From the NCBI GenBank assembly GCA_038727515.1, contig JAVYVS010000001.1, positions 544,001-608,000 on the forward strand: DNA of 64,000 bases, read 5' to 3'. This document shows positions 16,058 to 20,952 of the stretch, piece by piece (position 1 is the stretch's first letter; each line of letters starts with the position of its first letter). Made by a program: the position numbers and the translations under genes. Under the pieces are notes generated by a model, which worked only from the letters and a program-made list of their open reading frames with translations, did not search any database and was not told where the DNA came from. The DNA comes from Candidatus Methanomethylicia archaeon (lineage in GTDB: Archaea > Thermoproteota > Methanomethylicia > Culexarchaeales > Culexarchaeaceae).

Positions 16058-16695
16058 AGAGAATAGTAATTCTTGGACCCCCTGGTTCTGGTAAGGGGAC
16101 GCAAGCAAAATTAATCTCTGAAAAATATGGAGTACCACATATATCAACTGGAGATGTATTAAGGGAAAACATATCTAAAAAAACAAAAATTGGGGAGATC
16201 GTTAGGGAATATATAGAGAGAGGAGAATTAGTTCCAGATGAAATAATAATTAAAATAACGATAGATAAGCTAATTGAAGCAGTAAACGTTAGTGGAGGAT
16301 ACATATTGGATGGATATCCAAGAACTATACCTCAAGCAGAAGCATTAGAGAAATCAATTATAAAACCAGAAATAGTAATAGATATAAAACTTAGTGAAGA
16401 TGAATGCGTTAGAAGATTAACAAATAGAAGATACTGCCCCAATTGTGGAGAAGTATATAATATGTTACTTAAACCACCAAGAGAAAACGAGAAATGCGAT
16501 AAATGTAATGTGAAACTTTTACAGAGGGAAGATGATAGAGAAGATGTTATAAGAAGGAGATTTAAAGAATATTACAATAAAACGAAGCCAGTAATGGATT
16601 ATTATAGAAGTATTGGAAAATTAGTTGAAGTTGATGGTGGTGGAAGTATAGAAGAAATTCATAAAAGAATATTGGAGATATTAAAGTTTACTTAA
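16054..16695 (+). CDS. adk: Adenylate kinase, bacterial type with Zn-binding LID
   Basis: MKRIVILGPPGSGKGTQA, HISTGD, LDGYPRT, LID CPNC...CDKC, QREDD; true start ATG 16054 overlaps pit stop (ATGA). Confidence 0.93.
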   Translation: MKRIVILGPPGSGKGTQAKLISEKYGVPHISTGDVLRENISKKTKIGEIVREYIERGELVPDEIIIKITIDKLIEAVNVSGGYILDGYPRTIPQAEALEKSIIKPEIVIDIKLSEDECVRRLTNRRYCPNCGEVYNMLLKPPRENEKCDKCNVKLLQREDDREDVIRRRFKEYYNKTKPVMDYYRSIGKLVEVDGGGSIEEIHKRILEILKFT

Positions 16696-17916
16696 TACTT
16701 CATCAATATCAATTGAAACTTCAATTGGTTTTTCAACTACACTTAAAGTTGTTGAAACATCCTTTAAACCAAAACCAGATATTACACATACAATTAAGTC
16801 ATTGGCATCAATAACATCAAATTCTCTAAGTTTCTTAACTAAAGCTAATGGAGCTGCAGCTGCAGGTTCAGCATATATACCCTCAAATTTAGCAATAGCC
16901 TTATATGCCTCTATAATCTCATCATCAGATACAGCTTCAACAATACCATTACACTCCTTCAAAGCTCTATAAAGTAGAGGCCAACCAGCAGGATTTCCAA
17001 CAGCAATAGCACTAGCAATAGTTTTAGGTTCTTTAACTACTTCAATAACTTCACTATTAGCTTTAAAAGCTTTAACCATAGGTGCACATCCTTCAGCTTG
17101 AACACATGCCATTCTAGGCATACCATTAATCCAATCAAAATCAACCATTTCTTTAAATCCCTTAAAAGCACCTATAGCAGCTGTCCCCATACCAACAGAT
17201 TGAATATACCAATCTGGAGCCTTCCATCCAAGTTGCTCACAAATTTCATATGCAAGAGTCTTTTTACCCTCCTGTCTAATGGGATTAATAACTCCACCAT
17301 TATATATCCAACCAAGCTTTTCAGCAACAATCCTAGCAATCCTACTAGCATCATCAAAAGTTCCATTCACAAGGAAAACTCTACTACCATAAATCATTAT
17401 TGAAGCAATCTTCTCCCTAGAAGCATATTTAGGTGCAAAAACTATACTTTCAATATTAGCCAAAGCACAATATGCAGCTTGAGCTACACCAGCATTCCCC
17501 GTTGAGAAACCAACCATACCAGGAGCTTTCAATTCAAGCGCTCTACTAACAGCTGCAGAAGAACCCCTATCCTTAAATGATCCAGTGGGATTAAGATACT
17601 CAAGCTTTAAAAATAGATTCTTTAAACCAAGAATAGATCCTAAACGCCTACTCCTAATAAGTGGAGTCCAACCTTCACCCATACTAACAATACAAGAATA
17701 ATTTTCAATAGGAATAAATTCCCTATAACGCCACATATTAAAATCTCTAATGGAAATTTTAGCTTTACTAACAATAGACTTAATATAATCATAATTTAAT
17801 TGAAATTCAAGTATAGAACCACAATTTAAACAAAAATTAATGTTTAAATAGGGATCAAATTCAGAGCCGCATTTAACGCATTTCAATGATTTAATTTTGC
17901 TAACCATAACCACCAC
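16681..17916 (-). CDS. thrC: Threonine synthase
   Basis: N-terminal CxxC...CxxC, MGEGWTPL, NPTGSFKDRG, STGNAG, EGKKT, EPAAA, SGFGLK. Confidence 0.88.
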   Translation of the reverse strand: MVVMVSKIKSLKCVKCGSEFDPYLNINFCLNCGSILEFQLNYDYIKSIVSKAKISIRDFNMWRYREFIPIENYSCIVSMGEGWTPLIRSRRLGSILGLKNLFLKLEYLNPTGSFKDRGSSAAVSRALELKAPGMVGFSTGNAGVAQAAYCALANIESIVFAPKYASREKIASIMIYGSRVFLVNGTFDDASRIARIVAEKLGWIYNGGVINPIRQEGKKTLAYEICEQLGWKAPDWYIQSVGMGTAAIGAFKGFKEMVDFDWINGMPRMACVQAEGCAPMVKAFKANSEVIEVVKEPKTIASAIAVGNPAGWPLLYRALKECNGIVEAVSDDEIIEAYKAIAKFEGIYAEPAAAAPLALVKKLREFDVIDANDLIVCVISGFGLKDVSTTLSVVEKPIEVSIDIDEVLSKL

Positions 17917-18029: not shown

Positions 18030-19322
18030 ATGATTGGTGAAGGTTCACGTAAATTATATGAACGCGCAAAAAAGGTTACACCTGCAGGTGTAAGTTACGC
18101 AATAAGATACTTTGAACCATACCCAATATATATAAGGGCTGCAAAGGGATGTAGAGTTTATGATGTAGATGGAAATGAATACATAGATTACTGGGTTGGT
18201 CATGGAGCACTACTACTTGGACATAACCCACAAATAATGTTAAAAGCGTTAAGGGGGGCCATAGAAATTGGAACGCACTTTGGATTATCACATGAATATG
18301 AAGTTGAATATGCAGAACAAGTTGTTAAAATGATTCCAAGTGCAGAAATGGTTAGATTCACAAATAGTGGAACAGAGGCAAATATGTATGCCATAAGATT
18401 AGCTAGAGCATACACTAAAAGGGTAAAAATAGGAAAGATGGAAGGGGGATGGCATGGTGGATACGATGCATTACATGTGGCAGTAAATCCACCTTTTGAA
18501 AAACCTGAATCAGCAGGATTAACGGAGGAAGCAACAAAAGACACGATACCATTACCCTTCAATGATCTAGAAACCATAAGCAAAATTATGAGGAAAAATG
18601 AACTTGCATGTATAATAGTTGAACCAGTACTTGGCGCTGGAGGATGTATACCACCAGAAGAAGGATTCCTCCAAGGTTTAAGAGAACTATGTGACGATTA
18701 TGATACACTACTAATATTTGATGAAGTTATAACTGGATTTAGATTATCACCTGGAGGCGCACAGCAATATTATGGAGTATACCCAGATATAACAGTTCTA
18801 GGAAAAGCTGTGGGTGGTGGAGGATTAAGTATTGGAGCAATATGTGGAAAAAGTGAAATTATGGAGTTAATGGATCATACAAAATACAGGGATAAGAGTG
18901 AAAGGGTATTCCATGGAGGAACATACACAGCAAATCCACTCGTAAGTTATGTTGGAACAATAATGTTAAGGGAATATGAGAAAGGATACATATACCCACA
19001 CATAAATAGCCTTGGAAAGAAGCTTAAAGAAGAATTAGAAGAAGTATTTCAGAGATACAATATAGATGCACATACAACTGGAGAAGGATCTATGGTTGGA
19101 ATACACTTTACAAAGAAGAAACCAAAAAATGCTAGAGAAGCAAATGAAGGTAAAAATGAAGAAATGGCGAAAGAATATCATAAATTCCTATTGGAAAAGA
19201 AGATAATAGTAATAAAACCAACATTACCACATACATTCATAAGTTATGCACATGGAGAAGAAGAAATAAACAAATTAGTAGAAGCAACAGAAGAATTTGC
19301 AAAGAAAATTAAAGGTAGATAA
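18030..19322 (+). CDS. hemL: Glutamate-1-semialdehyde 2,1-aminomutase-like class III aminotransferase
   Basis: DVDGNEYIDY, NSGTEA, GGWHG, LIFDEVITGFR, LGKAVGGG, GGTYTANP. Confidence 0.75.
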   Translation: MIGEGSRKLYERAKKVTPAGVSYAIRYFEPYPIYIRAAKGCRVYDVDGNEYIDYWVGHGALLLGHNPQIMLKALRGAIEIGTHFGLSHEYEVEYAEQVVKMIPSAEMVRFTNSGTEANMYAIRLARAYTKRVKIGKMEGGWHGGYDALHVAVNPPFEKPESAGLTEEATKDTIPLPFNDLETISKIMRKNELACIIVEPVLGAGGCIPPEEGFLQGLRELCDDYDTLLIFDEVITGFRLSPGGAQQYYGVYPDITVLGKAVGGGGLSIGAICGKSEIMELMDHTKYRDKSERVFHGGTYTANPLVSYVGTIMLREYEKGYIYPHINSLGKKLKEELEEVFQRYNIDAHTTGEGSMVGIHFTKKKPKNAREANEGKNEEMAKEYHKFLLEKKIIVIKPTLPHTFISYAHGEEEINKLVEATEEFAKKIKGR

Positions 19323-19328
19323 TTTAAT

Positions 19329-19496
19329 TCAACCCCCAAAAACATATTCACCTAAAATAGATGAACATATAGGACATTTCATGTGAAGCTTAGAACTACA
19401 GATATTACAAAAAATATGTTTTTTATTACAAACATAGACATCATCATATACAAAAAGTTTTTTCCCACATCTAATACATCGACCTAGTAACACCAT
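19329..19496 (-). CDS. Small stand-alone RING-HC (C3HC4) finger protein, 55 aa (below ORF-track cutoff)
   Basis: MVLLGRCIRCGKKLFVYDDVYVCNKKHIFCNICSSKLHMKCPICSSILGEYVFGG*; spacing C-x2-C-x12-C-x3-H-x2-C-x2-C-x7-C-x2-C; TATA-like TTTAAA upstream. Confidence 0.85.
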   Translation of the reverse strand: MVLLGRCIRCGKKLFVYDDVYVCNKKHIFCNICSSKLHMKCPICSSILGEYVFGG

Positions 19497-19523
19497 AAAA
19501 ATCCCTATAACAATATAGATAGT

Positions 19524-19533
19524 AAAATTTAAA
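19524..19533 (-). promoter_or_regulatory. Putative TATA box of the RING gene
   Basis: Minus-strand TTTAAATTTT about 28-37 nt upstream of ATG 19496. Confidence 0.4.
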
Positions 19534-19617: not shown

Positions 19618-20952
19618 GTGAAGAAAGTAAATTTATGGGAAATAAAAAGTTACTCTGGAGTTAGAGGGATATATGGAGTTCAAGTAACACCAGAAGTAAT
19701 CTATAGAATTGTGAATGCATATGCTTCAATAAAAAATCCTGAAAAAGTAATTATTGGGAGAGATACAAGACCTTCAGGGATCCCACTAAAATATGCAGCT
19801 ATATCAAGTTTAACAACAGTTGGATGTAAAGTGATAGATGTAGATGTATCTCCAACACCAGCAATACTATACTTCACAAAGGAACTTAAACAAAATGGTG
19901 GAATAGTGATATCAGCATCCCACAATCCACCAGAGTACAATGCAATAAAAATTGCAGATAAAAATGGAATTCTAATATGGGATGAAGATCTAGATGAAAT
20001 AATTAGGAAAGCCGAGAAAGAAGAAATAAATATTTCAAAAAATCCAGGAAAAGTGGAACTGAGAGATATAAACAATGAGTATATAAATAGAATTATAAAG
20101 GTCATAGATCTGAGGGAAAGGGTTAAGGAAGGATTGAAAGTTCTCGTAGATCCAGGTGGAGGAGCAGGATCTCTAACTACACCAAAATTACTATCAAAAA
20201 TTGGATGTAGAGTTATATCAATAAATTCAATACCGGGGAAATTCAATAGACCAATAGAACCAACTGAAGAAGCTTTAAAGGAAACATCAAAAATCGTTAA
20301 ATTAGTAAATGCAGATATAGGTTTTGCACATGATTGTGATGCAGATAGACTTGTATGTATAGACGAAAAGGGGAAAGTTATTGGTGAAGACTACAGCATG
20401 GCAATAGCACTAAAATTTATACTCAAAACCAAGAAAATCAGTAAAATTGTAATTAATATAGCATCATCAAAAGTCATACAAGATATAGCGGAAGAATATG
20501 GCGTTAAAGTCTATTGGTCTAAGGTTGGAGAAGCAAATATGATTAAAAAGATCATTGAAACAGATAGCGATATAGGAGTAGAGGGTAGTAGTGGAGGATT
20601 AATATTAAAAGAACACCATTTAACGAGGGATGGAGCTATAGCTGCACTATCAATAATAGGCGAAGTATCTGAAACGGGAAAAACACTTTCACAAATAATT
20701 GAAGAACTACCTAAATACTATATGTTAAAGAGGAACATACCAAGAAATAATATAAATGTAGAGGATAAGATAGAATCACTAAATGAACTTGGGGAAATAA
20801 ATACAATAGATGGAGTGAAAATATCATCAGAAGATTATTGGGCTTTAATTAGACCATCAAAAACAGAACCAAAAATAAGGATAATAGTAGAGGCAAAAAC
20901 AGAGGAAAAAGCTGTAGAAGTAATGAAAAAAATTATACGTAAAATAAGTTGA
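19618..20952 (+). CDS. Alpha-D-phosphohexomutase (phosphoglucosamine mutase / PMM-PGM)
   Basis: SGVRG, GRDTR, SASHNPPEYN (phospho-Ser), DCDADR, VGE, IRPSKTEPKIR. Confidence 0.9.
   Translation: MKKVNLWEIKSYSGVRGIYGVQVTPEVIYRIVNAYASIKNPEKVIIGRDTRPSGIPLKYAAISSLTTVGCKVIDVDVSPTPAILYFTKELKQNGGIVISASHNPPEYNAIKIADKNGILIWDEDLDEIIRKAEKEEINISKNPGKVELRDINNEYINRIIKVIDLRERVKEGLKVLVDPGGGAGSLTTPKLLSKIGCRVISINSIPGKFNRPIEPTEEALKETSKIVKLVNADIGFAHDCDADRLVCIDEKGKVIGEDYSMAIALKFILKTKKISKIVINIASSKVIQDIAEEYGVKVYWSKVGEANMIKKIIETDSDIGVEGSSGGLILKEHHLTRDGAIAALSIIGEVSETGKTLSQIIEELPKYYMLKRNIPRNNINVEDKIESLNELGEINTIDGVKISSEDYWALIRPSKTEPKIRIIVEAKTEEKAVEVMKKIIRKIS

Follow-up and report, generated by a model that had tools for sequence, protein, structure and literature searches.

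What does a 55-amino-acid (aa) open reading frame (ORF) on the minus strand of a Candidatus Methanomethylicia archaeon (order Culexarchaeales) encode: a ubiquitin ligase of eukaryotic appearance that has lost sight of its partners, or a protein of another kind? The ORF lies in the gap between a hemL-like aminotransferase gene and a phosphohexomutase gene, within the 64,000-nucleotide (nt) stretch analyzed here as a whole (positions 544,001 to 608,000 of contig JAVYVS010000001.1, assembly GCA_038727515.1; hereafter, the window). An initial annotation, made from the letters of the DNA, had read it as a stand-alone RING-HC (C3HC4) protein ending in Gly-Gly. Our results show that the ORF is a genuine gene, and, on balance, we lean toward reading its product as a short RING-like zinc protein of the type of the archaeal ribosomal protein aS34, about as likely as not a ribosome-associated component or factor. 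The short aS34-type form described below extends this recently described kind of protein to Culexarchaeales, Thermoproteales and Thermofilales.

The small gene and its predicted fold

The 55-aa minus-strand ORF is present between the two genes at 19329-19496, and its sequence has the features that the initial annotation ascribed to it. All eight RING-HC ligands were found in canonical spacing (C7-x2-C10-x12-C23-x3-H27-x2-C30-x2-C33-x7-C41-x2-C44, including H-I-F-C and C-P-I-C), a Ser stands directly after the last Cys, at the usual linchpin position, and the protein ends in VFGG. The product is basic (net charge +5, pI 8.9). The ORF also has its own TATA-like box, TTTAAATT, and the position of this box relative to the ATG points to a leader of only about 7 nt.

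When relatives were searched in all six frames, intact orthologues emerged in every Culexarchaeales genome that is at least 90% complete, that is, in eight genomes of three families, with identities to the window ORF of 76-81% and 43-49%. The slot between the aminotransferase and the phosphohexomutase is kept in nine Culexarchaeales genomes (the window's own and these eight) of three families, as well as in a metagenomic contig (L031), although the guanine-plus-cytosine content of the Culexarchaeales genomes spans 32 to 43%. The ratio of nonsynonymous to synonymous substitution (dN/dS) is 0.07-0.11 for close orthologue pairs, at a synonymous divergence of 0.4-1.7. The start codons of the orthologous loci are aligned, TTATATTTAA or a TTTAAAT element occurs at a similar position upstream of the orthologues, and GGGGTG or GGAGGT precedes their ATG by 6-17 nt. 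Given the same slot in nine genomes, the low dN/dS and the conserved upstream elements, 19329-19496 is a genuine gene, well beyond what chance would produce.

The product is predicted to adopt a stand-alone two-zinc cross-brace RING-like fold, in agreement with the initial annotation. The AlphaFold2 model obtained with the family alignment reached a predicted local distance difference test score (pLDDT) of 89.5 and comprises three short hairpins, with a helix following ligand 6; the mean pLDDT falls to 66 in the C-terminal block, with the Gly-Gly tail being the low-confidence part. The top Foldseek match of this model was chain a of PDB entry 9fhl, i.e., aS34, with a template modelling (TM) score of 0.79 and a root-mean-square deviation (rmsd) of 1.8 Å over 54 columns; RNF8, SIAH1 and further RINGs ranked behind it, with TM scores of about 0.5-0.63. 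Similarly, VIA-align placed 52 of the 55 residues on 9fhl_a (Z 8.2, rmsd 1.4 Å, 31% identity), with all other entries (ZZ, RING, U-box) at Z ≤5.5. The model aligned solely to cross-brace domains (aS34, RING, ZZ and U-box); both zinc binding and the cross-brace pairing of the ligands are presumed. The likeness to SIAH RINGs, noted in the initial annotation, is real at the level of the structure (Z 4.4 to SIAH1) and of the E value (5e-4 for the Pfam model Sina_RING), but the latter match stays below threshold, with 20.6 bits against a cut-off of 29.3. The other Pfam RING models behaved in the same way, with zf-RING_5 at 19.7 (cut-off 27.9), zf-RING_2 at 12.0 (27.3) and zf-C3HC4_2 at 9.8 (27).

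Protein searches, both exhaustive and word-seeded, returned homologues of 55-66 aa (hereafter, the short family), all annotated as hypothetical, from Methanomethylicia metagenome-assembled genomes, Pyrobaculum, Thermoproteus, Caldivirga, Infirmifilum and other Thermoprotei; a locus search with the single window protein found no related loci, while one with a sub-alignment of closer members led to Candidatus Culexmicrobium species. A 14-sequence alignment of the family (A1) showed G5, R6, C7, R9, C10, G11, C23, C30, C33, K36, C41, P42 and L48 to be invariant. The first Cys is preceded by 4-10 residues, and the net charge is uniformly basic (+4 to +9, vs. +5 to +11 for aS34). His at ligand 4 was found solely in the window's family; the other Culexarchaeales and many Thermoprotei have Cys there, in a C-x2-C with one extra residue, and the ligand is absent in the Pyrobaculum homologues. 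Across the short family, ligand 8 varies between Cys, Asp (C-P-x-D) and no ligand at all, and certain Thermoproteales homologues have Asp or nothing at ligand 4, at ligand 8 or at both. Because the His is confined to the window's family and ligand 8 is variable, the “eukaryote-like” C3HC4 look is a local variant of a C4C4-type domain. The orthologue search suggested by the initial annotation did reveal conserved homologues, although ligands 4 and 8 and the terminal Gly-Gly vary outside the window's family.

The best Pfam match of the window protein is DUF1272 (PF06906), which covers residues 5-45 with an E value of 1.7e-5 and 25.3 bits, i.e., exactly the gathering score. Among the sequences of A1, the window protein alone reaches this cut-off and 8 of the 14 match at E <0.1; one homologue (P0020) is annotated with PF06906 in a precomputed annotation. 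A full-text literature search by family name gave nothing useful on DUF1272.

Kinship with ribosomal protein aS34

The aS34 protein (Saccharolobus solfataricus Q97ZK4, PDB 9fhl chain a) has been known since 2025 as a component of the 30S head, in contact with helix h33 of the ribosomal RNA as well as uS3 and uS14 (PMC11698992). Its authors described two zinc knuckles, noted the likeness to RING E3 domains and confirmed the protein by mass spectrometry, and the RING-like fold prompted speculation on a role in ribosome quality control (PMC11698992). The protein was reported solely in Acidilobales, Desulfurococcales, Fervidicoccales and Sulfolobales, whereas Thermoproteales and Thermofilales were explicitly stated to lack it; it co-occurs with domain 2 of eS6 and has no conserved operon partner (PMC11698992).

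Three profile-based comparisons connect the short family with aS34. When the short-family profile was compared with PDB sequences, 9fhl_a was the best match (E 4.1e-5). The same profile recovers aS34 orthologues in 37 of 64 aS34-type genomes at E ≤1e-3 (best 6.6e-9), and every match of this kind that was inspected proved to be an aS34 orthologue. Finally, hhalign aligned A1 with an alignment of the aS34 family (A3) over 55 columns with 98.0% probability (E 1.7e-13); A3 comprises 14 orthologues from genomes with weak short-profile matches, one of which is identical to a sequence in the alignment published by the aS34 authors. For calibration, true small RING-H2 proteins of families f17 and f37 were aligned (A4; 40.6 bits on zf-RING_2); this alignment matched aS34 at 97.1% (E 7.7e-11) and the short family at 96.5% (E 9.9e-10). 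Since hhalign links all three families at 96.5-98.0%, they belong to one superfamily, with the short family and aS34 as its closest pair, and homology between the latter two is very probable. Profiles were needed to see this relationship: a single-sequence aS34 fragment had no match in the window's genome, not even the window ORF. A Culexarchaeum fragment of aS33, taken from the alignment in PMC11698992, likewise had no match in the window's genome; its matches elsewhere were weak (E 2e-3 to 8e-3) and occurred in 6 of 12 Culexarchaeales genomes.

The distribution of the two families was assessed in 401 evenly drawn Thermoproteota genomes. The short-family profile had one strong match (E <1e-16) in each of 64 genomes and the aS34 profile had one strong match (E <1e-24) in each of 64 different genomes; no genome carried both. 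Within the families that carry it, each form is nearly universal: the short form in 23/23, 14/14 and 8/8 genomes, all eight sampled Culexarchaeales included, and aS34 in 17/17, 17/17, 13/13 and 5/5 genomes, among others. The named carriers of the short form include Pyrobaculum, Thermoproteus, Caldivirga, Infirmifilum and Culexmicrobium, and its families also cover Caldivirga/Vulcanisaeta-type organisms and Thermofilaceae. The sole match of the aS34 profile in the window's genome is the window ORF. A single-copy, near-universal and mutually exclusive pattern of this sort is what divergent orthologues show. The short family is the closest relative of aS34 and, judged by this exactly complementary distribution, probably its orthologue. 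In the rest of the window's class, neither profile had a strong match (the short form in 0/24, 0/4 and 0/6 genomes of the main families); the weak aS34-profile matches there were followed up and turned out to be LysW, the zinc knuckle of aIF2-gamma and other small zinc proteins.

Three loci show forms that depart from the typical members of the two families. In genome G107 (locus L078), the aS34 orthologue seemingly lacks the N-terminal G-H-x-G-W extension when read from its first ATG, which gives a protein of 59 aa beginning M-K-K-C-R-I-C; the open frame measures 79 aa and a non-ATG start further upstream is possible. In genomes G259 and G214 (L077 and L081), we observed a C4C4 protein of 60-62 aa with a pattern intermediate between the short family and aS34 (C-x2-C-x11-C-x2-C-x4-C-x2-C-x8-C-x2-C, ending in Y-T-P-P); G259 also has a divergent match to UQ_con (59 bits), the Pfam model of E2 enzymes.

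The genomic neighborhoods of the two families have little in common. The neighbors of the short form differ between lineages, so that no operon partner is shared, and comparison of aS34 loci with short-form loci found no common neighborhood beyond two weak links. One of these is a gene in G385 (L124:7662-8216), 3.5 kb from aS34; over 161 aa, it shares 59% identity with the hemL-like aminotransferase of the window, which may reflect either a once-shared gene order or chance (about 1 in 20 for the loci examined). The other is a gene with a 3'-phosphoadenosine-5'-phosphosulfate (PAPS)-reductase domain, directly next to aS34 in a single family and next to the short form in two genomes of Thermofilaceae (L126:4360-5592, L130:4151-5632, L131:2137-4026), the Thermofilaceae version having an extra 4Fe-4S dicluster domain and, at 28-31% identity, being of uncertain orthology. 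Separately, Pyrobaculum sp. WP30 has a 138-aa ORF (L032:6179-6595) that starts 2 nt past the stop codon of the short form and may be co-transcribed with it; this ORF has no Pfam match and is not kept beside the short-form gene in other lineages.

Ubiquitin and the Gly-Gly tail

The initial annotation had offered two ubiquitin-related readings of the gene. In the first, the protein would be an orphan RING E3 of a dispersed ubiquitin-like system, either recruiting an E2 or working with a ThiF-type E1 and a ThiS/MoaD-type modifier. Besides the fold itself, this reading can draw on the 96.5% profile match to the true, operonic RING-H2 family, on the conserved C-P-x-C motif, which is followed by Arg or Lys in the Culexmicrobium family, and on the presence in the window's genome (1.59 Mb, 93.6% complete) of one E1 of the ThiF type and four small proteins of the ThiS family above cut-off. 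This set is, however, the usual sulfur-carrier complement, and such ThiF/ThiS pairs are universal systems that need no E3. Further, the same genome contains no UQ_con E2, no ubiquitin-family (PF00240) gene and no JAB (PF01398) gene, and none of 12 Culexarchaeales genomes has a UQ_con E2 above cut-off.

The 401-genome sample points in the same direction. An E2 was found in 0 of the 64 short-form carriers and in 0 of the 64 aS34 genomes, but in 69 other genomes, none of which has either form, and in all eight genomes checked a true RING-H2 gene lies no more than 2 kb from the E2. That is, the negative result for the carriers is backed by a working positive control. The protein also falls short of every Pfam RING cut-off, in contrast to the control RING-H2 proteins on zf-RING_2. 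In RINGs that dock E2 enzymes, the position two residues after the first Cys is typically occupied by an aliphatic residue; in the short family, this residue is an invariant Arg. Because the carriers lack an E2, this Arg is invariant and the linchpin position is variable across the short family, an E2-dependent E3 role of the window protein is very unlikely, and the orphan-E3 reading as a whole, including its ThiF/ThiS variant, strikes us as highly improbable.

The control proteins deserve a description of their own. These RING-H2 proteins (L076 and L111-L117; genomes G171, G251, G341, G396, G189, G159, G321 and G296) are 78-109 aa long and have invariant C-F-x-x-W and C-P-x-C-R-R motifs. Their genes are located 1.5-2 kb from a UQ_con E2 in 8/8 genomes and correspond to the Caldiarchaeum-type ubiquitin operon. 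In two Thermoproteota families, every genome has an E2 (16/16 and 27/27).

The second reading held that the RING itself becomes activated or conjugated via the Gly-Gly at its C-terminus, in the manner of a ubiquitin-like modifier. The tail is flexible in the model, and the three closest orthologues as well as P0002 end in VVGG, close to the VFGG of the window protein. Nonetheless, Gly-Gly is confined to the window's family, i.e., to four close sequences (L003-L005 included, 76-81% identical) and the near-identical metagenome fragment P0002; it is absent from L006-L010, P0003, P0006, P0007, P0011 and P0013, whose tails are unrelated. In addition, the predicted fold is a zinc knot and not a beta-grasp, and the genome has no gene for a protease of the JAB family. 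We consequently give this reading practically no credence.

A further variant would keep the RING and dispense with the E2. Under this hypothesis, the protein would be an E2-independent RING, a module bound to the ribosome head or to RNA that ties translation surveillance to ThiF/ThiS-type (SAMP/Urm1-like) conjugation and that, in Culexarchaeaceae, is self-activated via its Gly-Gly tail. We regard this as a long shot. If true, RING E3 ligases would have arisen from a pre-ubiquitin function that is marked by aS34 and its short relatives.

Possible ribosome association and comparison with known systems

The reading that we favor, a short aS34-type protein acting at the ribosome, starts from a compact knot that would be held together by two structural zinc sites (C7/C10/C30/C33 and C23/H27/C41/C44). 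The basic face of this knot, which is invariant (G-R-C-x-R-C-G-K/R plus K36), would dock on RNA or on ribosomal proteins, so that the protein would work as a component of the ribosome or as a factor associated with it, and not as a ubiquitin ligase that depends on an E2. What suggests ribosome binding is the combination of homology to aS34, complementary distribution, basic charge and the lack of a conserved operon partner, and we put ribosome association of the short form at about an even chance.

Several observations weigh against this reading and have to be set beside it. First, while the aS34-short link is the strongest of the three between the families, its margin is moderate (hhalign scores of 70 vs. 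52 and 60), and the genome matches of the aS34 profile at E values of 1e-4 to 1e-6 include the unrelated zinc knuckles of aIF2-gamma and LysW; because these knuckles score there, genome-level E values in this range prove nothing alone. Second, the two families differ in several parts of the molecule. The 14-residue N-terminal extension of aS34, with its near-invariant G-H-x-G-W, is missing in the short form, ligand 6 is an invariant Asp (C-x-A-D) in aS34 vs. Cys (C-x2-C) in the short form, and the loop between ligands 4 and 5 has 7 residues in aS34 vs. 2-4 in the short form. Third, the eS6 frame of the window's genome encodes 121 aa, corresponding to the N-domain, and eS6 domain 2 is missing. 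Fourth, the expression data checked include nothing that spans the small ORF: metatranscriptome X1 has contigs >99% identical to both flanking genes and none over the ORF, and three raw-read RNA runs yielded nothing for the locus.

A further observation against it comes from the 70S ribosome of Pyrobaculum calidifontis (9e71/9e7f), the only solved ribosome of a carrier genus, which was determined at 2.4 Å with unknown densities identified by means of ModelAngelo. This ribosome is present in the PDB copy that we searched (its eS27 is a near-perfect match to a Pyrobaculum genome), and it has no chain related to the 58-aa Pyrobaculum homologue. Hence, the short form of Pyrobaculum is either not part of the purified ribosome, present in less than stoichiometric amounts, or lost as the ribosomes were prepared. 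It is important to note that the Pyrobaculum proteins, with their degenerate second zinc site, may not be representative of the family. We also considered whether the short family might correspond to aS35 of P. calidifontis, and this was ruled out, since the aS35 homologues are helical and Cys-free. A complex prediction of the ORF protein with the genome's own uS3, uS14 and zinc gave a score of 0.01, which counts neither way.

Alternatively, the short family might be a free, non-ribosomal small zinc protein, that is, an independent or ancestral basic RING-like adaptor for nucleic acid or another partner, of which the Sulfolobales-type lineage alone recruited a descendant as aS34, adding the G-H-x-G-W extension together with eS6 domain 2 and aS33. 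The unmatched P. calidifontis model, the absent extension, the different ligand 6 and the missing eS6 domain 2 all favor this hypothesis, and degenerate site-2 ligands in Pyrobaculum are what different constraints would be expected to produce. On the other hand, a near-universal, single-copy distribution that is strictly complementary to that of aS34 is the pattern of orthologues with a shared core role, and purifying selection, basic charge and lack of an operon partner fit a housekeeping RNA- or ribosome-binding protein equally well. Moreover, the extension may not be a dependable mark of aS34, as the orthologue in L078 may also lack it if translated from the first ATG. We therefore consider a free protein a serious, yet rather unlikely, alternative, and retain a ribosome-associated short form as the working model.

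The features of the locus are collected in Table 1. The two genes flanking the small gene are its conserved neighbors in nine genomes, and the small gene and the phosphohexomutase share a promoter region of 121 nt. Pfam annotation records Aminotran_3 for the left neighbor in L030 and L031 and PGM_PMM_I-IV for the right neighbor in the orthologous locus L031. Upstream of the aminotransferase, the window also encodes a pyridoxal-phosphate enzyme of 411 aa (16681-17916, minus strand), in which an N-terminal zinc-ribbon-like segment (C-x2-C ... C-x2-C) precedes the catalytic domain.

Table 1. Features of the small gene and its surroundings (coordinates of the 64-kb window; distances are relative to the ATG of the small gene).
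Feature	Position	Strand	Remarks
Small RING-like gene	19329..19496	-	55 aa; stop codon 19329-19331; from ORF and translation
RING-like core, C7 to C44	19365..19478	-	
C7 codon	19476-19478	-	
C10 codon	19467-19469	-	
C23 codon	19428-19430	-	
H27 codon	19416-19418	-	
C30 codon	19407-19409	-	
C33 codon	19398-19400	-	
C41 codon	19374-19376	-	
C44 codon	19365-19367	-	
Gly54-Gly55 codons	19332..19337	-	C-terminal
TATA-like box TTTAAATT	19526..19533	-	-37 to -30; read from the sequence, presumed function
Purine-rich AGGGA	19502..19506	-	-10 to -6; possible Shine-Dalgarno-like element
Class-III aminotransferase, hemL-like	18030..19322	+	Convergent with the small gene; conserved left neighbor
Phosphohexomutase	19618..20952	+	Divergent from the small gene; conserved right neighbor

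These results have implications for how the ribosomes of Thermoproteota are viewed. A shorter homologue, unannotated for the most part, occupies precisely those lineages (Thermoproteales, Thermofilales and Culexarchaeales) that were reported to be without aS34, and it is under strong selection and nearly universal there. What had been assumed to be an absence thus becomes a question, namely whether a RING-like zinc protein is general on the Thermoproteota ribosome head or whether a free zinc protein was recruited once. The three related archaeal families (the short form, aS34 and the operonic RING-H2 proteins with their E2) also offer material for tracing the RING fold between translation and ubiquitin signaling. 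In practical terms, a conserved gene of 55-66 aa that gene callers often miss or label as hypothetical gains an identity.

Among known systems, DUF1272 has Cys pairs with a spacing similar to that of the window protein; it was described from bacterial Cys-rich proteins of unknown function, and no functional transfer is possible. The RING-HC domains of eukaryotic E3 enzymes (RNF8, SIAH1, TRAF, RNF4) share the C3HC4 spacing with the window protein and resemble its model at TM scores of 0.53-0.63 and VIA-align Z scores of 4.3-4.6, but they differ from it in that the window protein is below every Pfam RING cut-off, its His ligand is not conserved in the short family, and the carriers of the family have neither E2 nor ubiquitin. 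The “srfp”-type RING-H2 proteins of Caldiarchaeum are, like the short family, small, stand-alone and RING-like, with a similar first knuckle and C-P-x-C; they pass zf-RING_2 and have C-F-x-x-W, C-P-x-C-R-R and a nearby E2, all of which the window's family lacks. Finally, aS34 is, like the short form, a stand-alone, basic, two-zinc protein with a RING-like cross-brace, encoded by a single-copy gene outside operons. While aS34 is longer (about 72 aa vs. 55-66 aa) and has C-R-I-C where the short form has the invariant G-R-C-x-R-C-G, the two have in common an aromatic-x-C ahead of ligand 5, K/R-x-L/V behind ligand 6, and C-P-x-C/D with a conserved Leu four positions further on.

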